This document shows, piece by piece, positions 1,347-12,660 of a DNA stretch of 64,000 nucleotides (the stretch's first letter is position 1; each line of letters starts with the position of its first letter). The translations under genes were made by a program, and so were the position numbers. Source of the DNA: Candidatus Omnitrophota bacterium (GTDB lineage: Bacteria; Omnitrophota; Gorgyraeia; Gygaellales; Profunditerraquicolaceae); contig CAWDSS010000010.1 in the NCBI GenBank assembly GCA_963805065.1, forward strand, positions 275,696 to 339,695, read 5' to 3'. The notes below the pieces were generated by a model. The model was not told the origin of the DNA, searched no databases, and worked only from the letters and a program-made list of their open reading frames with translations.

Positions 1347-3365
1347 CTAATCGTTGCGCTTGGATGATAAAGACTCTATAATCTTTTCAACGTCCCTATC
1401 TATCTTTCTCTCTATGAAATGGGGAATAGATGCCTGAATTTTTCTTTTGAAATCCGATTGCAGCCACTGGAAGTTCATTTTATGCAAATTACCCGAAAGC
1501 TGGAAATCAAAAATTAGATTCTTAAAGTCTTTTCCCAAAAGATTAAGCAGGGGCGTAAATTTTCTAGACCGCCGCAGCAGTTCTCTGGTAAAGGACAAAG
1601 AAATCTTGCTGGAAACTAAATCTTTGTGCCCCAGGTTAAAAAAACCATTCAGGTTGACGTCTTTGGATTCAAGATACATGTTTTGCAGTCCGGCACCTTC
1701 TTCGTTAACCAGGAAATTTGAGGCTGCCCGCTTAAAGTATATTTTCTTAAGCGCTGACAAATCAAAGAAATCGGCTAACCATTTGAAGAATTGCAAATTA
1801 TATACATAACCTTTCTCTATATCCATGTCCCCTTTTAAATATGGATACGGAAGGCTGCTGAAATACATTGAGCTGGCTAACTTACCGCGAAATTTGGAAA
1901 AATGAATTAATAAACCATCGAGCTTGTTGGCGCTAACATTGTTTATTCTGGCCATAGCAGTAATTGTAGGGGGCCACTTGGATGTATCAAAGCGCCCCTG
2001 GCCTCTCAATACCCCGTCATAAAACAGAGAGCTGAATTTAACAAATTTTTCTTTCTCATTCTTAAGGAAAATTTCGGAATTTAAATCTTTCCAAGATAAT
2101 TGGTATTCATTTTGATTTGTTTGAAGGAATAAATTACCTTCCCCCAGGGACATCCTGAGGTGGGGGTATTGACTAAAATATAAATTTAATTTGTCAAAAC
2201 CCAATTCAAACCCCTCTAAAGGCAGGCCGCCTGCCTTCTTCTTTACAGACTCAAGCTTGAGTATCCCGTTACTACTAAATATATTATCCCTCAATGTCCC
2301 TTTTATTTTTAGCTCTACATTTTTAATATCTTCTGACTGTCCGTATTTTAAATTCATTAAGGAGGAAGAAATTACCAAATCTATAGTGACAGGGTCCAAA
2401 AGCACAATATTTCCTTTCAAGCTGACTGGATTGTTATTCAGGGAAAACTTTAGGCGTTCTATTTGAAGTAAAGGAAAATTAAAATTTCCCTGGCAGTCTA
2501 TATCAAGTATAAATAAGTTTGCCTGGGGCAGCCGCGCAACCGAAAGAATCCCCGGGCCCTCTTTAAAAAACCTCAAATTTTCAGTGACATTAAATGCTGA
2601 TCCCTGATGTTCGCTTTCTTTAAAAAGCGTATTCATGAAGATAAACCCGCTGAATCTAAAACTGCCGCCCTTTAAATTACCCTTTAATTGCGAAGAAAAA
2701 TTCTCCCTCGCTAATTCTAATTTTTCTATGGATATCCCGTTTCCTGTGAAAAGTGCCTCAATATTATACTTTAGGGGGAATTCCAGAGTTGGGTTTGCGG
2801 GCGTAACCTTGCTAATTGAGCCGAAGCTGGAAATAGAATTGCCTTTTATCAATAAAACGAAGTCTACGAAAGCATACTTAAAACCGATATTTTCTTTTGT
2901 AAAATCCGACTTGAGTCTTTTTATAAAAATGTTGATATCCTGTTTGTGCAAACTATGGATAAATGCCATAATTTGCTTAAAATTATACCTTAGGAAATTT
3001 CTAAACTCATAAGAATTCAGCTTAGCCCCATATACGTAAATATCTGAAACTAATAAATGCCTTTTTGTTAAGATTTCGCGCAAAGATAGTTTCATGCATA
3101 CGGTAGGCATAAAAAAAGATGCATTCTGATCAGGGAACATTACTTCCCTTAGTGAGACGTTTTTTAAAATAATGAAGTTGGGCGGCAGGTATATAATACG
3201 GGCTATGGTTATTTTTTTATCAAAATATTTTTCCAGAGGGAGTGTTAATTTATCTTTTGATACGGCAAGAATTATATTAAAGGATGCTGTGGTAAATGCG
3301 ATTACTAAAAGCAGGATACAGATGATAAACCAGAATTTACTAAATTTAATATGATATTTGCGCAA
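1347..3365 (-). CDS. large membrane-anchored hypothetical protein (AsmA-like architecture)
   Basis: 672 aa. An N-terminal TM anchor (FWFIICILLLVIAFTTASF) is followed by a long, apparently beta-rich extracytoplasmic region. No diagnostic motif was recognised. Confidence 0.4.
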   Translation of the reverse strand: MRKYHIKFSKFWFIICILLLVIAFTTASFNIILAVSKDKLTLPLEKYFDKKITIARIIYLPPNFIILKNVSLREVMFPDQNASFFMPTVCMKLSLREILTKRHLLVSDIYVYGAKLNSYEFRNFLRYNFKQIMAFIHSLHKQDINIFIKRLKSDFTKENIGFKYAFVDFVLLIKGNSISSFGSISKVTPANPTLEFPLKYNIEALFTGNGISIEKLELARENFSSQLKGNLKGGSFRFSGFIFMNTLFKESEHQGSAFNVTENLRFFKEGPGILSVARLPQANLFILDIDCQGNFNFPLLQIERLKFSLNNNPVSLKGNIVLLDPVTIDLVISSSLMNLKYGQSEDIKNVELKIKGTLRDNIFSSNGILKLESVKKKAGGLPLEGFELGFDKLNLYFSQYPHLRMSLGEGNLFLQTNQNEYQLSWKDLNSEIFLKNEKEKFVKFSSLFYDGVLRGQGRFDTSKWPPTITAMARINNVSANKLDGLLIHFSKFRGKLASSMYFSSLPYPYLKGDMDIEKGYVYNLQFFKWLADFFDLSALKKIYFKRAASNFLVNEEGAGLQNMYLESKDVNLNGFFNLGHKDLVSSKISLSFTRELLRRSRKFTPLLNLLGKDFKNLIFDFQLSGNLHKMNFQWLQSDFKRKIQASIPHFIERKIDRDVEKIIESLSSKRND

Positions 3366-3870
3366 ATAACTCGCCCTCTAAGTAAAATTCTATCTTCTCT
3401 ATATAATAGACTGCCTTATATTTTTTACCAAGAGGAGACTTGTATTTAAATTCTTTAGAATTCTTAAATAAGAAAATCTGTTGCTTAAAAGTCAGTATTG
3501 CATTCTCTAAATTACTCACTACGGCCTCGTTACCCTGAATTTCTGCTATTTTTAAAAGATAGACAAGAGCAAATAATTTGGATTTAGAATCCGGGTAATC
3601 ATTGATTAATTTAACGAATGCGTCATTCGCACCACGATAATTTTCAGTATCAAAGTAATATTCTCCTGTTGCAAATAATGCATCCGGCTTATATTTTGAT
3701 TCGGCAGAATTAGCCACAATCGACTGAAAATTCATAAATGCAGAAATAAAATCTCCGGATTTTGCCGCATTGATTCCTTCGTAATATATCTGCTTATCTT
3801 CCTGTGCATATACTGTAATGCCAGATAGAAGAATCAGAAAAAAAATGATACTTACTCTTTTAAATATCAT
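3346..3870 (-). CDS. secreted TPR-like repeat protein
   Basis: 174 aa. It has a signal peptide (IIFFLILLSGITVYAQ) and TPR-like helical repeats of the YbgF/BamD type (GDFISAFMNFQSIV, YKPDALFATGEYYF, GANDAFVKLINDYP). Confidence 0.5.
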   Translation of the reverse strand: MIFKRVSIIFFLILLSGITVYAQEDKQIYYEGINAAKSGDFISAFMNFQSIVANSAESKYKPDALFATGEYYFDTENYRGANDAFVKLINDYPDSKSKLFALVYLLKIAEIQGNEAVVSNLENAILTFKQQIFLFKNSKEFKYKSPLGKKYKAVYYIEKIEFYLEGELFAQISY

Positions 3871-3913
3871 CTAAACGCTCCTTTAGGTTGGCAATTTCTC
3901 ATCGCCGTTCTTG

Positions 3914-4133
3914 CTTTCATTAGTATGGCTATGGAGGCACCAAAACACATTGTTTGCAATCGAAGATTCCAAATCACATTGATTTGGAATAGATTCTGCG
4001 CCACATTGGTGTTAAGATACCAAAACACATTGTTTTGGTATCTCCGTTATCTTTCATTAATGCAGCTATGGAGGCACCAAAATACATTATTTTGGTGCCG
4101 TAGCCTTTTTTCATTAATGAAAAAAGGCTACGG
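3914..4133 (-). repeat. tandem hairpin-repeat array 1 plus tRNA trailer hairpin (downstream of tRNA-Ser GGA)
   Basis: The palindromic units are 3941-3956 (degenerate), 3966-3990 (ATTCCAAATCACATTGATTTGGAAT), 4016-4042 (GATACCAAAACACATTGTTTTGGTATC) and 4073-4099 (GGCACCAAAATACATTATTTTGGTGCC). A degenerate ATTAAT hairpin lies at 4041-4072, and the perfect trailer palindrome is at 4098-4133. Confidence 0.85.
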
Positions 4134-4215
4134 AGAGGCAGGGATTTGAACCCTGGGACCCTTGCGAGTCATACGCTCTCCAAGCGTACGCATTCAACCG
4201 CTCTGCCACCTCTCC
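4131..4215 (-). tRNA. tRNA-Ser (anticodon GGA)
   Basis: The reverse complement reads GGAGAGG TG GCAGAGCGGTTGAATGC G TACGC TTGGAGA GCGTA, then a long variable arm, then CAGGG TTCAAAT CCCTG CCTCTCC G. It folds as a class II cloverleaf by hand. No CCA is encoded. Confidence 0.85.
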
Positions 4216-4637
4216 AAAAAATTTTAATGTAAAATTTTTTGGATTCTGTAGGCAATGCTTAGATTAATCTAAGCATTGCCGCAAGAATCTCCAAAGTCGT
4301 TCGCTATTGCTTAATCAATACTTATCAGTAAACAAATAACAGTTGTTGCTTTATTTATTACGTAGCTTTATATTTTAGGACGCTCACTCCTCATAGGGGA
4401 AACCCGTTTGGTTTCCCCTGATGACGCTCTCCGCCAGCTGTTAGCTTTGGTCGCTGTCACCCCTTCCTTCGCAATTTAGAGAAACATCCTTAAGGGGAAA
4501 ACAATCTTTTCCCCTTAATAATCCCTTTTTTAGGTTTTTAACAACAGAACTTAAAACCACTTCTATTGTCCTGCTTCGCAGGATAGTTGTTAAAAACCTT
4601 TGTCGTTCGCTTGAGCTTTGTTTGTCAGATTACCAGA

Positions 4638-4753
4638 TCCTGAAATACATTATTTCAGGACTAAGATACCAAAACACATTGTTTTGGGACAAAGAAGCCA
4701 AAATACATTATTTTGGCTTCTCCGTGATTTTTCATTAATGAAAAATCACGGAG
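4638..4753 (-). repeat. tandem hairpin-repeat array 2 plus tRNA trailer hairpin (downstream of tRNA-Ser CGA)
   Basis: The units are 4638-4660 (TCCTGAAATACATTATTTCAGGA), 4669-4687 (CCAAAACACATTGTTTTGG) and 4694-4720 (GAAGCCAAAATACATTATTTTGGCTTC). The trailer palindrome is at 4720-4753 (CTCCGTGATTTTTCATTAATGAAAAATCACGGAG). Confidence 0.85.
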
Positions 4754-4835
4754 AGTGGAGGATTTGAACCTCCGGTCACCTTACGGCGACAACGGTTTTC
4801 GAAACCGCCGCATTCAACCGCTCTGCCAACTCTCC
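4749..4835 (-). tRNA. tRNA-Ser (anticodon CGA)
   Basis: The reverse complement reads GGAGAGT TG GCAGAGCGGTTGAATGC G GCGGT TTCGAAA ACCGT, then a long variable arm, then GGAGG TTCAAAT CCTCC ACTCTCC G. No CCA is encoded. Confidence 0.85.
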
Positions 4836-4869
4836 AGATTTATGAATACATACACGACTTTATCTGAAC

Positions 4870-5151
4870 TCAGCCTCTGAATACCAGTAAAAAAACTACT
4901 GAAGAAATAATACAGATTAATCCGACAATAACCCTTTTCTTTAATAGGCTTTCCTGAAAAGTATAAATCGTAGTCTCTAACTTAGGGATCATTATTTTTT
5001 TTAACCCAAAAATTTCTTTACCTAAAATACCTTCTAGTCTTCTGTATTTGTACTCGGCAATTAACAATAATACTCCCACTACAAAAACCACGGGGCTGAC
5101 GAATAATAACGCACTTTTCATGATATCGAAAATCGTTAATTCCGGAGCCAT
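4870..5151 (-). CDS. small membrane protein, two predicted TM helices, unknown function
   Basis: 93-aa ORF with hydrophobic segments ALLFVSPVVFVVGVLLLIA and VIVGLICIISSVVFLLVF. It lies between two tRNA-Ser genes. Confidence 0.45.
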   Translation of the reverse strand: MAPELTIFDIMKSALLFVSPVVFVVGVLLLIAEYKYRRLEGILGKEIFGLKKIMIPKLETTIYTFQESLLKKRVIVGLICIISSVVFLLVFRG

Positions 5152-5192
5152 TCTATACCTCCTTGCTTTGCTTGCGGATTAAAAGGTATCGA

Positions 5193-5350
5193 GGCACTGA
5201 AATACATTATTTCAGTTACGCAATAGGCACCAAAATACATTATTTTGGGTCTCAATAGGTACTAAAATATATTATTTTGGGCAACGATAGGCACTGAAAC
5301 ACATTGTTTCAGTGCCACCGCTTAGCTTCATTAATGAAGCTAAGCGGTGG
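5193..5350 (-). repeat. tandem hairpin-repeat array 3 plus tRNA trailer hairpin (downstream of tRNA-Ser TGA)
   Basis: Four units with a 32-33-nt period start at 5193, 5226, 5258 and 5290. One example is GGCACTGAAACACATTGTTTCAGTGCC at 5290-5316. The trailer palindrome is at 5315-5350 (CCACCGCTTAGCTTCATTAATGAAGCTAAGCGGTGG). Confidence 0.85.
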
Positions 5351-5433
5351 GGGTGAGATTTGAACTCACGGAGGGGAGAAATCCCCTCAACAGTTTTCAA
5401 GACTGCCGCTTTCAACCGCTCAGCCACCCCACC
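5345..5433 (-). tRNA. tRNA-Ser (anticodon TGA)
   Basis: The reverse complement reads GGTGGGG TG GCTGAGCGGTTGAAAGC G GCAGT CTTGAAA ACTGT, then a long variable arm, then GTGAG TTCAAAT CTCAC CCCCACC G. No CCA is encoded. Confidence 0.85.
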
Positions 5434-5543
5434 TATCCTGTTTTTCCCGCATCTATGAATTTTATTGTCGGGCGGGATCCCGCCTGTGATTTAATAGCCG
5501 AGCGGGACAAGACAAGCCCATTCGACCACTCTGGCACCCCACC
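5434..5543 (-). pseudogene. tRNA-like 5' half (class II, Ser-like) interrupted by a 63-nt twin-hairpin module and truncated after the anticodon stem
   Basis: The minus strand reads GGTGGGG TG CCA GAGTGGTCGAA TGG G CTTGT CTTG, then [TCCCGC-N18-GCGGGA][TCCCGC-N21-GCGGGA], then AAA ACAGG ATA, after which tRNA-Ser(TGA) begins. The variable arm, T arm and 3' acceptor strand are absent. Confidence 0.55.
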
Positions 5544-5551
5544 AGAACTAA

Positions 5552-6238
5552 TTATAAGAAAAGCTGTTTAAACACAGCATAAAATATACTCTCAGCCGAA
5601 AGGAATGCGCTGTTGAAGAAATTAACAAAGGAGAACTGTTTAAAAATGAAACTAAGGCTTAGGGAAAGCAGGATTAAATTGACTATAAAAATAAAAGAAA
5701 ACCCGAAAATGTAATTTGCTTTCAGGAAATCATTTTGTTTTGTCCGCACTGACTTTGCGCTGAATACCAAATGTAATGCCACACTGAAACTAAAAATAAA
5801 CAAGAAAAAATAAAAGAAATCTTTGGATTTAAAAATTAAAGAAAGCGGTAAGTACAAAATAAATACAATAATCGCATAGACCGGCAATACGAACGGCGCC
5901 ACCTTTACCAGAGGAGAAAAGAAACTGAATATAACCTCAAGCAGCCTGTGGCCTTTACGATAAATCGCTGCCGGTTCAAACACAAACAAATGTATGAGAA
6001 GAAAAGTTATTATGCCTGCCCAAAAATAACTTTGCGACGGTAAATCTATCAGCCCTAATTCTTTTAAAAATGATACCGATATCGAATATACGAACGGCAA
6101 AAGGCAAACCCCTAAGACAAATTTTATGATTCCAAACAACTTATCGGAAATTCCCGATATTCTGGAACGAGCACCCTCTAAAATCCTGGGACCCTCTTTT
6201 TTAGGAAGTTCTTTCTTAGGAAATTCTTTCTTTTCCAT
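5552..6238 (-). CDS. polytopic membrane protein, unknown function
   Basis: 228 aa. A lysine-rich N-terminus (KKEFPKKELPKKEGP) is followed by about 6 hydrophobic helices. The gene overlaps the serS 3' end by 23 nt. Confidence 0.5.
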   Translation of the reverse strand: MEKKEFPKKELPKKEGPRILEGARSRISGISDKLFGIIKFVLGVCLLPFVYSISVSFLKELGLIDLPSQSYFWAGIITFLLIHLFVFEPAAIYRKGHRLLEVIFSFFSPLVKVAPFVLPVYAIIVFILYLPLSLIFKSKDFFYFFLFIFSFSVALHLVFSAKSVRTKQNDFLKANYIFGFSFIFIVNLILLSLSLSFIFKQFSFVNFFNSAFLSAESIFYAVFKQLFL

Positions 6239-7484
6239 CTAAATATGTCCTTAAGACTTGCGGTATTATTACCGAGCCGTCTTTTTGTTGGTAGTTCTCA
6301 ATTATCGCTATCACTGTGCGCGCCAAAGCAATGCCTGAACCGTTGAGGGTATGTACAAAATCGATTTTCTTCGTGCCTTTTCTTCTGAATCTTATATTTG
6401 CCCTGCGTGCCTGGAAACCCTCAAAATTTGAACAACTGGATACTTCCAGCCACTTGTCCACTCCTGCGGCATATGCTTCAAGGTCATAGCATTTGCTTGC
6501 GGAAAAACTCAGATCTTCTGTAGATAACATTACTACCCGGTAAGGTAAACCCAATAATTGAAGTACCTCCTCTGCATCCTTGACTAATTTTTCCAACTCA
6601 TCATAAGAAGTCTCAGGCTTAACAAATTTAACCATTTCCACTTTATCAAACTGATGCACGCGCATAAGGCCTTTGGTATCTTTGCCGTATGAACCTGCCT
6701 CTCTTCTAAAGCATGCGGTATAAGCAGTATAATAAATAGGCAAGCTATCTTCGTCTAAAACTTCGTCCCGAAAGATATTTGTTACCGGCACTTCTGCGGT
6801 AGGAATTAAAAATAAATCGTCATCTTTTAAGCGGTACATATCTTCTTCCAGCTTGGGAAGCTGGCCTGTGCCGGTCATGGAAGCCCTGTTTACCAGAAAA
6901 GGTGGAAAAACTTCAGTATAGCCGTGTTTTTTGGTATGCAAGTCAAGCATGAAGTTTAATAATGCTCTTTCAAGTTTTGCACCCCAGCCTTTATAAAGAA
7001 TAAAATTTGAACCCGTGATTTTTGCCGCGCGGTTAAAATCAATTATATCCAGATGCTGGCTAAGTTCTATATGGCTAAGCGGCTGGTAATCAAATTTTGG
7101 CAAATCGCCCCACGAGCGCACAGTTTCTTTTTTTGAATGATCTCCGATAGGAATGGTTGAATCTGGTACATTAGGAATAGTTAACAATATTTTATCTAAC
7201 TCGGTTTCTGCTTGTTTTAATTTGTCTTCCAGTTGATCTATTTTATTTGAAATCTCCTTCATTGAGTAAATTTTTGCTTTTGCATCTTTTTTCTCTTTTA
7301 ATAGGCCGGTGATTTCATCGTTTGCCTTGTTCCTTTTTGCCCTTAACTCTTCCAATTCAACCAGGGCCTGCCTTCGCGCATCATCAACTTTCAACAAGGC
7401 AGATAAATCTAGCTTGAGATTACGGTTGTTCAAAGACTGCTTTACTAAATCCTGATTTTCGCGAATGAATTTTATGTCTAACAT
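6216..7484 (-). CDS. serS: seryl-tRNA synthetase
   Basis: 422 aa. It has an N-terminal coiled-coil tRNA-binding arm (MLDIKFIRENQDLV...) and class II core motifs (FRREAGSYGKDTKGLMRVHQF, TLNGSGIALARTV). Confidence 0.95.
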   Translation of the reverse strand: MLDIKFIRENQDLVKQSLNNRNLKLDLSALLKVDDARRQALVELEELRAKRNKANDEITGLLKEKKDAKAKIYSMKEISNKIDQLEDKLKQAETELDKILLTIPNVPDSTIPIGDHSKKETVRSWGDLPKFDYQPLSHIELSQHLDIIDFNRAAKITGSNFILYKGWGAKLERALLNFMLDLHTKKHGYTEVFPPFLVNRASMTGTGQLPKLEEDMYRLKDDDLFLIPTAEVPVTNIFRDEVLDEDSLPIYYTAYTACFRREAGSYGKDTKGLMRVHQFDKVEMVKFVKPETSYDELEKLVKDAEEVLQLLGLPYRVVMLSTEDLSFSASKCYDLEAYAAGVDKWLEVSSCSNFEGFQARRANIRFRRKGTKKIDFVHTLNGSGIALARTVIAIIENYQQKDGSVIIPQVLRTYLDGKERIS

Positions 7485-7485
7485 T

Positions 7486-8946
7486 TTATCCTTTTATTAC
7501 TCCTAATGGTCGCATCCTGCAGACGCGCTTGGAAATACCCACATTATGCACTACATCCACCACATCATTAATATCTTTATAAGCCTGGGGAGCCTCTTCT
7601 ACAATAGTGCCTCTGCCCGACGCTTTAACAATTATACCCTTAGATTCCAATTCTTTCAACAACATATTCAAGTCAATAGACTTAGTGGCAGATGTGCGCG
7701 ATTTTAGTCTTCCTGCGCCATGACAGGTAGAATAAAAGGTTTCTTCGGCTTTTGCAGTACCTACCAACAGATAGGAATTTCTTCCCATATCTCCGGGTAT
7801 AATCACAGGCTGGCCTGTTTTTTTATACCTCTGTGGCAATGCAGGATGCCCCGGGCCAAAAGCTCGCGTTGCTCCTTTTCTATGCACGCACAGCGATTTC
7901 TCCTTGCCATCAATTTTATATTTTTCAATTTTCGCAATATTATGTGCTACATCATAAATCAGAAACATTCCCAATTTCTGCCACGACGCTCCAAAAATAC
8001 GCTCAAAAGATTTACGCGTAAGATGCATCAGGCACTGACGGTTATTCCAGGCATAATTAGCAGCGCACTTCATAGCTGCCAAATATTGTTTACCTTCGGC
8101 AGAATTTACCGGAGCGCAGGCAAGCTGCCTGTCAGGTACATTGATATTGTATTTCTGAAGGCAATGAACCATGTTCTTTACATATTCATCGCATATCTGA
8201 TAGCCGAAACCCCGCGAGCCGGAATGGATCATCACTGTAACCTGGCCTAGATTAAGCCCGAATTCATCACAACAATCCCTATCGTAAAGTTGATCGATGA
8301 CTTGAACCTCAAGAAAATGATTTCCCGAACCCAGGGTCCCTGATTGCGCCTTTCCCCTTTCATAAGCCCTGTCTGAAACAGCATCGGGATCAGCGCCTTG
8401 TATTGCGCCATTTTCTTCAGTGCATTCCAAATCTTCCTGTGTCCCGTAACCTTTTTCTACCGCCCACTGAGAGCCTTTTACCAGAATTTCTTTTTCTTCT
8501 CTTGCGCTGACCCTGATATCGCCTTTTGAACCCACGCCAGAAGGCACATCAGAAAACAATGCATAAACTAAATCTTTGATTTTATCCTTTATTTCATCAT
8601 ACTGAAAATTAGTTTTTAATAATCTAATGCCGCAATTTATGTCATAGCCGACGCCTCCGGGAGAAATCACTCCGCCGTTTTCAATATCAGTCGCAGCTAC
8701 CCCTCCTATCGGAAAACCATAGCCCCAATGTATATCAGGCATGGCTAACGACGCATTTACAATTCCCGGTAAAAATGCCACATTAGCCACCTGCTGGGCT
8801 GCTTTGTCGTTACGGATATCCTTTAATAATTTCTCGTCTGCATAGATTATCCCCGGAACACGCATACCAGGCTGGTATGACTTAGGTATGCGCCAGCGAT
8901 AATCATCAATTTTCTCTAAAGGTCCATTCCAAACCTCAGACATCAA
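7486..8946 (-). CDS. rtcB: RNA 3'-phosphate/5'-OH ligase RtcB
   Basis: 486 aa with RtcB signature segments: GYDINCG, GSGNHFLEVQ, HSGSRGFG, CHGAGR and PLGVIKG at the C-terminus. Confidence 0.93.
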   Translation of the reverse strand: MMSEVWNGPLEKIDDYRWRIPKSYQPGMRVPGIIYADEKLLKDIRNDKAAQQVANVAFLPGIVNASLAMPDIHWGYGFPIGGVAATDIENGGVISPGGVGYDINCGIRLLKTNFQYDEIKDKIKDLVYALFSDVPSGVGSKGDIRVSAREEKEILVKGSQWAVEKGYGTQEDLECTEENGAIQGADPDAVSDRAYERGKAQSGTLGSGNHFLEVQVIDQLYDRDCCDEFGLNLGQVTVMIHSGSRGFGYQICDEYVKNMVHCLQKYNINVPDRQLACAPVNSAEGKQYLAAMKCAANYAWNNRQCLMHLTRKSFERIFGASWQKLGMFLIYDVAHNIAKIEKYKIDGKEKSLCVHRKGATRAFGPGHPALPQRYKKTGQPVIIPGDMGRNSYLLVGTAKAEETFYSTCHGAGRLKSRTSATKSIDLNMLLKELESKGIIVKASGRGTIVEEAPQAYKDINDVVDVVHNVGISKRVCRMRPLGVIKG

Positions 8947-9352
8947 AAATCACCTCTGCCATCCAGCCGGAATCCGACTGTTCCAATTTCAATTCATGAT
9001 AAGTAGCTGCCTTTATCTCGGTATTTACTTTATAATTTTTCATGTCGCTGCCTGCAACAACAGCCTCCAGGCTATGCTTATCTATTTTGTTTATCTTAAA
9101 ATCGCAAAATATCAGCGCCTTGGCAGCGGATAAAGACAATAATTCATTCAGCCAATTAACAAAAAGCTCATCAATATTATCCGCGCTCTGCTTAATTTGG
9201 ATTTGGTTGACTTTCTTAGCGCAATGCCCTGATTCTTCAGCCATAATGTCAAACATCGCGCGGGCAGTTTTTCGAAATAATTCTTCCAGGCTAGCCGCTG
9301 TTATTTTGACGCCTACGTCTGCGGTATGCTCGATCAGCTCATAATCCTTCAT
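8936..9352 (-). CDS. archease (RtcB activator family)
   Basis: The ORF track starts at 9373, but that ATG lies inside the tRNA-Lys acceptor stem/CCA. The second Met (MKDYELIEHTADVGVKI...) gives the canonical archease N-terminus. The gene overlaps the rtcB start by 11 nt. Confidence 0.8.
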   Translation of the reverse strand: MKDYELIEHTADVGVKITAASLEELFRKTARAMFDIMAEESGHCAKKVNQIQIKQSADNIDELFVNWLNELLSLSAAKALIFCDFKINKIDKHSLEAVVAGSDMKNYKVNTEIKAATYHELKLEQSDSGWMAEVIFDV

Positions 9353-9362
9353 GGGAGGGAAA

Positions 9363-9438
9363 TGGTGGGCCATGTAGGAGTCGGACCTACGACCTTGACA
9401 TTAAGAGTGTCCTGCTCTGCCAATTGAGCTAATGGCCC
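9363..9438 (-). tRNA. tRNA-Lys (anticodon CTT), CCA encoded
   Basis: The reverse complement reads GGGCCAT TA GCTC AATTGGCA GAGC A GGACA CTCTTAA TGTCA AGGTC GTAGG TCCGACT CCTAC ATGGCCC A CCA. It has an unusual C at T-loop position 55. Confidence 0.75.
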
Positions 9439-9640
9439 TAAAATCTAGGTTTTTATACCAGCCATTAGCGAAATGCCCGCTAGGGTATGAGCTAATGGCC
9501 CTGATTATTTGTTAGTGTAGTAAAGAGTATATCTTAGATAAAAAACTAAATCAAGGAAATTGTTACACAGAAATAGCTAGTGTCCAAATATTATCCATAT
9601 ATAACTACGCTGCTCGTTGTAAACAGATAAAATCTAGTTA

Positions 9641-12522: not shown

Positions 12523-12653
12523 TGCGCCTGGCAGGAGTTGAACCTGCAACGCCTAGCTCCGAAGGCTAGCGCTCTATCCAGTTGTCCCGCTATATCATTT
12601 AGTTCCGCTAGCGGGATCCCGCCTGCTATGGAATAGCTTGGCGGGAAGCTACA
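12523..12653 (-). pseudogene. tRNA-Arg-like gene (anticodon TCG) interrupted in the D arm by a 62-nt twin-hairpin module, with a decayed 5' acceptor strand
   Basis: The minus strand reads ..TG TA GCT, then [TCCCGCC-N16-GGCGGGA][TCCCGCTA-N16-TAGCGGGA], then C AACTGGATA GAGC G CTAGC CTTCGGA GCTAG GCGTT GCAGG TTCAACT CCTGC CAGGCGC A. The 7 nt that should pair with CAGGCGC read TTGAATG, giving only 4 of 7 pairs. Confidence 0.55.
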
Positions 12654-12660
12654 TTCAAAA

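Follow-up and report, generated by a model that had tools for sequence, protein, structure and literature searches.

Low-copy palindromic repeats at gene 3′ ends, with DNA-level turnover and tandem amplification behind tRNA-Ser genes of an Omnitrophota bacterium

Three tandem arrays of short hairpin units follow three tRNA-Ser genes in a 64,000-nt stretch of a Candidatus Omnitrophota genome (contig CAWDSS010000010.1; the whole stretch is called the window below). Each array is separated from its tRNA gene by a 36-bp palindrome, here called T, and consists of shorter hairpins, here called U. The same T-U module was found at the 3′ ends of genes in related metagenome contigs, and our data describe a low-copy, gene-3′-end-anchored palindromic family with DNA-level turnover and tandem amplification. 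We favour, with moderate confidence, the interpretation that the arrays are locally amplified copies of this lineage-specific palindromic DNA repeat, which would resemble repetitive extragenic palindromic (REP) elements and miniature inverted-repeat transposable elements (MITEs) and would be kept perfect by DNA hairpin processes. The literature was searched for this repeat family and no description was found; the T-U family appears to be undescribed.

All three tRNA-Ser genes are encoded on the minus strand (ARAGORN), and the arrays lie downstream of them at lower coordinates. We counted 12 U units, which have a single orientation and within the 64 kb are confined to the 3′ side of the three genes. 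An earlier inspection of the DNA letters, referred to here as the sequence-only reading, had described these three arrays with about 13 units, and the arrays are confirmed. The U core AAAYACATTRTTT is present in nine exact copies, one copy with one mismatch and one with two mismatches, all on the plus strand between 3943 and 5309. With up to two mismatches allowed, the whole window contains 30 matches to AAAYACATTRTTT compared with 17 ± 3.8 in shuffled sequences, and none of 100 shuffles reached 30. Repeat finders, including TRF, gave periods of 29 and 32-33 nt and perfect stems of 10-13 bp around a 3-nt centre, and single U units fold with z-scores of −5 to −8. Perfect stems of at least 10 bp were observed at 4073-4099, 4015-4043, 3966-3990, 4693-4721, 4638-4660 and 5290-5316. 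The unit at 4664-4690, which has a 9-bp core, is counted with these among the seven well-formed units, and the units at 3936-3962, 3991-4016, 5191-5219, 5226-5252 and 5258-5284 are shorter or decayed. The tRNA-proximal units in the window are perfect and distal units are decayed. When a covariance model built from 99 related modules was run unfiltered over all 64 kb, every match with E < 0.1 fell within 3943-5391, and the best match outside this interval reached 15 bits (E = 0.65). The claim that the family occurs in the window only behind the three tRNA-Ser genes was therefore upheld. No U tract follows the window hairpins, which agrees with the earlier view that they are not classical terminators. 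In Rfam searches only the tRNAs reached the gathering score, and nothing meaningful was found at E ≤ 10 in 3300-6300. The window arrays are well beyond chance.

A perfect 36-bp T palindrome with the apex TTCATTAATGAA lies between each tRNA and its array (4098-4133, 4719-4754 and 5315-5350), so that the order on the tRNA strand is tRNA, T, U and, where present, further U units. T is built of 15-bp arms around ATTAAT, usually as TTTC ATTAAT GAAA. Its left arm consists of the last nucleotides of the host gene plus a short trailer, and its right arm is the exact inverted copy of the left arm. The window copies overlap the tRNA 3′ end, with the last 3-6 nt of the tRNA (..CCG) and the trailer held in the tRNA-side arm. 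The U units that follow T have stems of 9-13 bp and an asymmetric loop, AATGT, on the gene strand. The features of the window are as follows.

4130..4216, minus strand: tRNA-Ser(GGA), host of array 1 (ARAGORN; Rfam tRNA, 56.6 bits).
4098..4133, minus strand: T palindrome 1, CCGTAGCCTTTTTTC ATTAAT GAAAAAAGGCTACGG, the first 3 nt (CCG) being the tRNA end (100% complementary inverted repeat, apex search; DNA fold −17 kcal/mol, z = −10; 77.7 bits with the next U unit in the covariance model).
4073..4099, minus strand: U unit 1a, perfect 12-bp stem, loop AATGT on the tRNA strand (inverted repeat, core search, fold).
4043..4072, minus strand: half-T (apex with one mismatch; sequence reading).
4015..4043, minus strand: U unit 1b, perfect 13-bp stem (inverted repeat, core search, fold).
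3991..4016, minus strand: U unit 1c, decayed, plus-strand core GCGCCACATTGGTGT (sequence reading; missed by the strict core search).
3966..3990, minus strand: U unit 1d, perfect 11-bp stem, AAATCA/TGATTT variant (inverted repeat, core search, fold).
3936..3962, minus strand: U unit 1e, one decayed arm (direct repeat, core search).
3904..3935, minus strand: second half-T, more decayed, tRNA strand ..TCCATAGCC ATACTAAT GAAAGCAAGAACGGCG (sequence reading).
4748..4836, minus strand: tRNA-Ser(CGA), host of array 2 (ARAGORN; Rfam).
4719..4754, minus strand: T palindrome 2, TCTCCGTGATTTTTC ATTAAT GAAAAATCACGGAGA, the first 6 nt being the tRNA end (inverted repeat, apex, fold; 82.2 bits).
4638..4721, minus strand: array 2, three U units (4693-4721, 13 bp; 4664-4690, 9-bp core; 4638-4660, 10 bp), period 29 (repeats, core search).
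5344..5433, minus strand: tRNA-Ser(TGA), host of array 3 (ARAGORN; Rfam).
5315..5350, minus strand: T palindrome 3, CCACCGCTTAGCTTC ATTAAT GAAGCTAAGCGGTGG (inverted repeat, apex, fold; 77.6 bits).
5191..5316, minus strand: array 3, four U units, period 32-33 (5290-5316, perfect 12 bp; 5258-5284, loop ATA; 5226-5252; 5191-5219; outer stems of the distal units decayed) (repeats, core search, fold).
4213..4289, minus strand: two palindromes upstream of tRNA-Ser(GGA) (inverted repeats); the 4213-4243 hairpin takes in the GG at the tRNA 5′ end and has a CAT loop on the tRNA strand, and the 4242-4289 palindrome has an ATTAAT centre with the inner stem TTAG/CTAA.

Array 1 also contains truncated forms of T. 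In the half-T at 4043-4072, the right half, ATTAAT GAAAGATAACGGA, still complements the end of tRNA-Ser (TCCGTTA), but the left arm TCCATAGCTGC does not; the covariance model scored 36.8 bits in this region (4013-4068). The second half-T together with unit 1e is a repeat of the block 4043-4099, about 137 nt away.

Relatives of the module were collected in two scans. In a first genome scan, a two-core pattern picked out 73 stretches; three of them were real (L016, L052 and L057; relatives are coded in this way) and the rest mostly chance. L016 and L057 are metagenome-assembled genomes (MAGs) of Candidatus Omnitrophota and L052 is an unclassified MAG, and all three show the same architecture behind tRNA-Ser. 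A metagenome scan with the pattern TTCATTAATGAA-N18-ANNAATGTNNT then matched at least 120 contigs, with about 100 true modules among the matches listed; the counts of hosts and of covariation given below refer to the modules among these matches. The family is assigned to Omnitrophota on the basis of the named MAGs, the 72-80% identity of seryl-tRNA synthetase (SerRS) to that of module loci and the Omnitrophota labels on homologues of a neighbouring gene. The distance from the T apex to the AATGT of the first U is constant, and the arms of T beyond ATTAAT measure exactly 15 bp in 88 of 127 cases. T has an invariant inner TTTC/GAAA and mostly TCC/GGA as its outer pairs, with 8 freely varying bp in between; variants with the inner stems TTCC/GGAA, TTAG/CTAA, TTGC/GCAA and CTGG/CCAG also occur. 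T palindrome 2 has identical copies in L128 and L057, the ortholog of T palindrome 3 in L099 differs by compensated changes, and the ATTAAT palindrome upstream of tRNA-Ser(GGA) recurs upstream of tRNA-Ser in L147. Most clusters consist of T and one U (79/125) and only 8/125 carry three or more U units, so the window arrays are at the upper end of U number. Copy number is low, with 39 clusters in 425 kb of loci of at least 8 kb, most of these being the seeds, and orientation is mixed in 3 of 125 clusters. The sequence-only reading had named a scatter through all intergenic regions in both orientations as the behaviour of ordinary REP elements; the family is instead low-copy and strictly co-oriented with its host genes.

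The module is always co-oriented with the gene upstream of it, and T abuts the end of this gene. Non-redundant modules follow tRNA-Ala (23), tRNA-Ser (23), tRNA-Asp (4), tRNA-Gly (3) and tRNA-Cys (1), and a further 13 follow a tRNA-like end that was not called by ARAGORN, seven of these being transfer-messenger RNA (tmRNA). About 65% of modules are located behind tRNA or tmRNA, and seven non-redundant modules follow the stop codon of an open reading frame (ORF). Counted per tRNA gene, a module was present for Ala in 28/33, Ser in 26/58, Asp in 4/5, Gly(GCC) in 3/3 and Cys in 1/1 cases, and for Arg (0/19), Ile (0/14), Leu (0/13) and Val (0/6) in none of the tRNA genes of the loci. The link to tRNA-Ser that the sequence-only reading had proposed is therefore a property of the window and does not hold for the family. 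Usually the module is behind the last tRNA of a cluster. Among ORF hosts, T takes in the stop codon of an MlaE-like permease gene ahead of its ATPase gene and that of the NiFe-hydrogenase large subunit ahead of its protease, and in L167 an ORF terminates in the TAA of ATTAAT; in the ORF cases the module fills the gap between co-oriented, closely spaced genes. In 14 loci, tRNA-Ala(TGC) with its module is located upstream of 23S rRNA, and in the inspected spacers a boxA-like TGCTCTTTGACAA follows. Its position between tRNA-Ala and 23S and within operons shows that the module does not terminate transcription efficiently. Ordinary U-tract terminators are present in the same genomes, whereas the modules have no U tract. 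On the non-tRNA hosts, Rfam gave no match except to rRNA and introns elsewhere in those loci.

Some of these host regions have further features. The tRNA-Ala(TGC)-23S spacer of L089 and L122 holds a conserved small membrane-protein-like ORF (..MPPAMGIVFGITWFLFMGGMA..) before the boxA-like TGCTCTTTGACAA. A G+C-rich region of about 400 nt with many helices, resembling a structured RNA, was found in L102 (3840-4240) and L106 (200-585). It ends in a tRNA-like acceptor/T-arm minihelix (GGTGCGT..ATCGT TCTAACA ACGAT..ACGCACC-G) directly before the module and gave neither an Rfam match nor an ARAGORN tmRNA call. In L052 (3640-3760 and 6220-6480), tRNA-Arg(ACG)-like sequences are broken or flanked by a CCCTGGCCTGCC..GCCAGGGCAGGC hairpin, with one intact ARAGORN call.

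In the gapless alignment of the 99 modules, paired cells are complementary in 97.9% of cases compared with 36-50% in slid controls, and 686 double-sided changes were observed compared with 174 in shuffles. All four Watson-Crick pairs occur at variable columns; column pair 10:27, for example, is AU in 28, CG in 26, UA in 23 and GC in 22 modules, without a wobble or a mismatch. In L098, two modules behind different tRNA-Ser genes are one fully compensated pair apart. The hairpins and the paired changes in their stems, first noted among the window units, are thus real. The wobble pairs, in turn, are symmetric. Of 1545 pairs in T, 13 are G·U and 11 are A·C (0.8% vs 0.7%), and U stem positions 2-9 have 22 G·U and 19 A·C. 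As a control, the tRNA stems of the same loci show 6.3% G·U in the acceptor stem and 4.2% in the tRNA T stem, with 0.1% A·C. An RNA stem selected on one strand should resemble the tRNA control; the module, being symmetric, looks instead like a palindrome under the same constraint on either strand. RNA folding of tRNA plus trailer predicts that the acceptor stem forms and that T is reduced to its inner 11 bp, and the outer T pairs are conserved as pairs with no obvious RNA role. Pairing is probably maintained at the DNA rather than the RNA level. The earlier statement that the hairpin is maintained is correct for the pairing, but weak for an RNA hairpin, because G·U and A·C are equally frequent and each below 1%.

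Comparison of orthologous loci showed turnover of the module. In eight orthologous serS-orf228-tRNA-Ser clusters (SerRS 72-80% identical), the module is present at different subsets of the tRNA genes: in the window all three tRNAs carry it, and in the other clusters one or two do, or a sister element, T′, is found instead. As presence varies across orthologous clusters, the module is dispensable for tRNA-Ser. Its absence at the orthologous tRNA-Ser genes of close relatives also leaves the processing-signal, decoy and small-RNA roles suggested by the sequence-only reading without support. An empty and a filled site could be compared directly: relative to L122, L089 carries a 54-nt insert and a duplicated TCCACCA. 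In 18 of 104 modules compared with 6.6 expected, the start of the left arm recurs behind U as a direct repeat of at least 6 nt; the lengths are 6-11 nt, and in L088, L101 and L137 the repeat measures 9-11 nt and includes trailer nucleotides. Modules with such a repeat have the structure X - centre - X′ - U - X. In half-T copies, the right arm complements the tRNA end and the left arm is unrelated. T′/U′ and T/U elements are nested in either order, and L199 carries three tandem copies of 54 nt that are 100% identical. Taken together, the empty/filled pair, the target-like direct repeats and the nested and identical tandem copies indicate insertion and duplication at the DNA level. The window modules gained 3-5 U units each, and array 1 gained half-T units as well.

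In L167, a hypA-like fragment located upstream of a hydrogenase operon lies between two copies of an 85-nt T-U block (5030-5100 and 5440-5500). The U hairpins of the two blocks differ in their stems and have their loops in opposite orientations (ACATT vs AATGT), which makes this locus one of the three clusters of mixed orientation.

The sister family T′/U′ follows the same plan. T′ is a 15-bp hairpin that starts from the ..CCG end of tRNA-Ser and has the loop GACAA(G). Behind T′, U′ is a nested hairpin, CACTNAAGCGAGCG..GACAAG..AGCGAGCG.AGTG, and the pair was seen in the tRNA-Ser trailers of L190, L111, L128 and L084. Possible T′/U′ remnants (GCGAACGAC/GACAA motifs) are present in the window at 4290-4640, and the 420-nt non-coding stretch from array 2 to tRNA-Ser(GGA) contains several strong hairpins. 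The start of U may set the limit of the right arm of T, although the stem of T′, which has no U, is equally long.

The sequence-only reading had named RAYT/TnpA(REP)-type genes as something to look for in the genome, and E. coli RayT was used as a probe for Y1_Tnp genes. Such genes are indeed common in Omnitrophota, but their flanks are unrelated to T or U and none is present in the 64-kb window. In L082, a Y1_Tnp gene (Pfam E = 4.6e-14) lies between a pilin-like gene and tRNA-Ala with its module. It belongs to a unit of about 780 bp (L082 4659-5437; also in L199, L200, L201 and L203/L204) with an 18-22 bp inverted repeat, GGGGTCAGAATTATTTTT, a conserved hairpin over the ribosome-binding site with ACGTCTATTAATAG in its loop and a 230-aa Y1_Tnp (PF01797). 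The family is conserved and widespread in Omnitrophota, mostly with one copy per contig (two genes in L201) and in varied genomic contexts, five of which are distinct (L082, L199, L200, L201 and L203, of which L204 is a duplicate). Y1_Tnp is at most a possible mobiliser of the module: no consistent link was found in these contexts, and the only hint is the conserved ATTAAT-containing loop of the ribosome-binding-site hairpin. A large serine recombinase (Resolvase, Recombinase and Zn ribbon; 497 aa) is encoded in L109 at 8039-9532; its 3′ end overlaps an opposite-strand tRNA-Ser(GCT), which suggests an integrated element at that tRNA. In viral contigs, both pattern matches (2) are without palindromy and represent chance, so a viral origin was rejected.

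From these data, a course of events can be proposed for the amplified DNA repeat. A selfish or semi-domesticated REP/MITE-like element would insert, or be copied, at gene 3′ ends. Its stems would be kept Watson-Crick by template switching or intrastrand conversion, nucleated at the AT-rich palindromic centre, and selection on the gene end would fix which arm serves as the template. Arrays could then grow through slippage between short direct repeats. The transcripts would carry stable 3′ hairpins that are dispensable and not efficient terminators. Several points weigh against this interpretation. No transposase recurs beside the modules among the 769 ORFs of the loci, and the Y1_Tnp flanks are inverted repeats of their own, with no module nearby in three of the five contexts. 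Only a minority of modules, mainly of the class with a 9-bp U, have target-like direct repeats. The scan pattern preset the apex and the spacing, and the constancy of both is thus partly imposed by the search. The modules at the MlaE and hydrogenase junctions are retained in orthologs, where the other arm makes up for even a synonymous change of the last codon (CCA to CCC). Co-orientation, the preference for the last gene, the ATTAAT and AATGT loops, unchanged over deep divergence, and this retention would also fit a function read by a trans-acting factor.

The main rival is such a function in RNA. As a cis-acting element, the trailer hairpins would serve 3′-end formation or protection of stable RNAs and some mRNAs, with the loops read by a lineage-specific protein; they might admit a nuclease, block an exonuclease or terminate transcription with the help of a factor. 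We consider this explanation possible but not probable. It accounts well for the gene-T-U order, which is always on the transcribed strand and abuts the 3′ end, for the usual position behind the last tRNA of a cluster, for loops that are invariant while the stems covary and for the compensated changes at the orthologous MlaE/ATPase and hydrogenase/protease junctions. The whole trailer also folds better than shuffles (z = −8 to −9.5). On the other hand, an RNA stem is at odds with G·U being no more frequent than A·C, both below 1%, where the tRNA stems have 4-6% G·U, and with the loss of the outer T pairs to the acceptor stem in the predicted fold. Nor would a 3′-end element be expected to be absent at the orthologous tRNA-Ser genes of relatives and never to occur behind Arg, Ile, Leu and Val tRNAs, to lack a U tract in genomes that use U-tract terminators, or to be located upstream of 23S and within operons. 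The two explanations are not exclusive, because REP elements are DNA repeats and RNA hairpins at once.

It is also conceivable, although we regard it as unlikely, that the module results from an undescribed, target-copying and hairpin-templated insertion, in which two conserved connectors, the ATTAAT centre and the AATGT hairpin, are installed at the 3′ end of a gene and three copies of the final 7-15 nt of the target result, direct, inverted and direct again. Such a process would yield a fixed 36-bp perfect palindrome with tRNA CCA ends or stop codons, and the enzyme could be a hairpin-specific nuclease of the HUH type or another nuclease. The cruciform-prone DNA that it would leave behind stable-RNA genes may have its own role.

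It seems improbable that T is a DNA site for a protein, that is, a cruciform or recombination-type site (lox, dif) or a gyrase or ParB-like site behind highly transcribed genes, with U as an accessory. The fixed 15+6+15 geometry with its AT-rich centre and perfect symmetry would suit such a site, half-T copies with unrelated left arms resemble recombinant sites, one U of L167 is inverted relative to its T, and the serine recombinase of L109 lies beside tRNA-Ser. However, eight arm positions vary freely and therefore cannot be recognised by a protein in the DNA duplex, no recombinase recurs near the modules, and no true module was found in viral contigs. The likeness to dif, parS and lox breaks down because centre length and arm sequence differ. 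A device specific to tRNA-Ser (small RNAs, decoys of SerRS or other proteins, or serS-linked regulation) is very improbable: all window copies are behind tRNA-Ser beside serS and the serS synteny is conserved, but the module also follows Ala, Asp, Gly and Cys tRNAs, tmRNA and ORFs, serves fewer than half of the tRNA-Ser genes (26/58) and differs between orthologous clusters, stop codons in the variable arm exclude a peptide and, by inspection, no toxN-like gene lies downstream.

A number of other candidates were rejected. CRISPR arrays alternate identical repeats with unique spacers of similar length and usually come with cas genes. The arrays of the window are not of this kind, as had already been concluded, because the units abut with linkers of 0-6 nt and the repeats differ; by inspection, nothing cas-like is found among the neighbouring ORFs. 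In ToxI-like antitoxins, a tandem array with a repeat length of about 36 nt immediately precedes a gene for a ToxN-type endoribonuclease. The ORFs downstream of the arrays encode, by inspection, a 174-aa secreted repeat-type protein and a 93-aa membrane protein, and most modules have a single U. A small peptide starting at the apex ATG was considered because of the constant, in-frame spacing of 27 nt between the apex ATG and the unit ATG; stops occur in the variable arm (L078, L171 and L086). A promoter (ATGAAA - 17 nt - AATAAT) is a weak match (9/12) and would leave the palindromy unexplained. The resemblance to attC and to dif/parS/lox-like sites is due to chance and their architecture fails, and the same applies to TTTCATTAATGAAA, which equals the junction of two long terminal repeats in Moloney murine leukemia virus.

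Outside the arrays, the window encodes an RtcB RNA ligase (486 aa) and an archease (145 aa) on the minus strand (7486-9373), both named by eye. The pair is located directly upstream of serS and downstream of tRNA-Lys, and with serS and the three tRNA-Ser genes it makes up a block of tRNA-related genes. At least seven related contigs share the serS-orf228-tRNA-Ser synteny. A second repeat family of about 65-70 nt has the core AGGCGGGATCCCGC and two hairpins (CCCGCC..GGCGGG and ATCCCGC..GCGGGA). It occurs in the window at 5445-5515 and at 12575-12645 (minus strand) and in L001, L104, L116, L124, L128 and L139. The copy at 5445-5515 adjoins a 5′ tRNA-Ser-like fragment (5516-5545), the copy at 12575-12645 is inside a tRNA-Arg-like sequence without the 5′ acceptor strand (12560-12660), and the copy in L139 is in a tRNA-Ala-23S spacer.

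Omnitrophota are abundant, mostly uncultured bacteria whose genome dynamics are almost unknown. Here, a palindrome is built from the last nucleotides of its host gene, including the CCA ends of tRNA and tmRNA and stop codons. If a dedicated enzyme makes this palindrome, it would represent a new way of targeting the ends of stable-RNA genes; if the module instead acts in RNA, it would serve as a 3′-end signal specific to the phylum. What looks like RNA covariation is most likely born in DNA, which calls for caution in covariation-based searches for non-coding RNAs. The combination TTTC ATTAAT GAAA - N11 - AATGT-loop hairpin can be used as a sequence marker of the lineage in metagenomes.

Among known systems, intrinsic terminators close a transcription unit with a G+C-rich hairpin and a U tract behind it. 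Like them, the module places a stable hairpin directly behind tRNA genes, with hairpins in tandem pairs; unlike them, its stems are A+T-rich, no U tract follows and the loop sequences are conserved. The module shares with the att sites of tRNA-targeting integrative elements the position at the tRNA 3′ end, and some copies are flanked by a direct repeat of the tRNA end. It differs from them in its size of about 50 nt, in having no integrase, in its ORF hosts, in the inverted copy of the target and in not occurring in viral contigs.

MITEs have terminal inverted repeats and a target-site duplication of fixed length and are related to an autonomous element. The module is, like MITE-like repeats (Correia elements, Rickettsia palindromic elements and palindrome-associated transposable elements, PATEs), small, non-autonomous and polymorphic for presence and absence; some copies have target-like direct repeats, and it can overlap or extend coding ends. 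Its two different hairpins recall the left-end and right-end hairpins of the PATEs derived from IS200/IS605, elements that are not known to produce a target duplication. In contrast to MITE-like repeats, the module has no terminal inverted repeats of fixed sequence and its target is also copied in inverted form. No related autonomous element with the ends of the module was found among the ORFs of the loci, and the ends of Y1_Tnp differ.

REP elements and bacterial interspersed mosaic elements (BIMEs) are imperfect palindromes that are conserved in sequence, including a 5′ tetranucleotide (e.g. GTAG), and they are scattered in many copies, often as inverted pairs. They are linked to RAYT (Y1) transposases (Nunvar 2010; Ton-Hoang 2012; Bertels & Rainey 2011). 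The stems of the module, in contrast, are perfect and variable at 8-11 positions, only their centres are conserved, and they share no 5′ tetranucleotide. The palindrome is built partly from nucleotides of the host gene, and the module is found in one orientation without alternating pairs and in low copy (three sites in the 64 kb of the window). The Y1_Tnp of Omnitrophota is flanked by GGGGTCAGAATTATTTTT inverted repeats and not by T or U. On the side of likeness, the module consists of short extragenic palindromes that are clustered at gene 3′ ends and within operons and have a lineage-specific consensus, its propagation through a DNA hairpin in single-stranded DNA is plausible, and Omnitrophota have a conserved Y1_Tnp. 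Although several of the features that define REP/BIME elements differ from those of the module, REP-like is the nearest category for it, as the sequence-only reading had already suggested.

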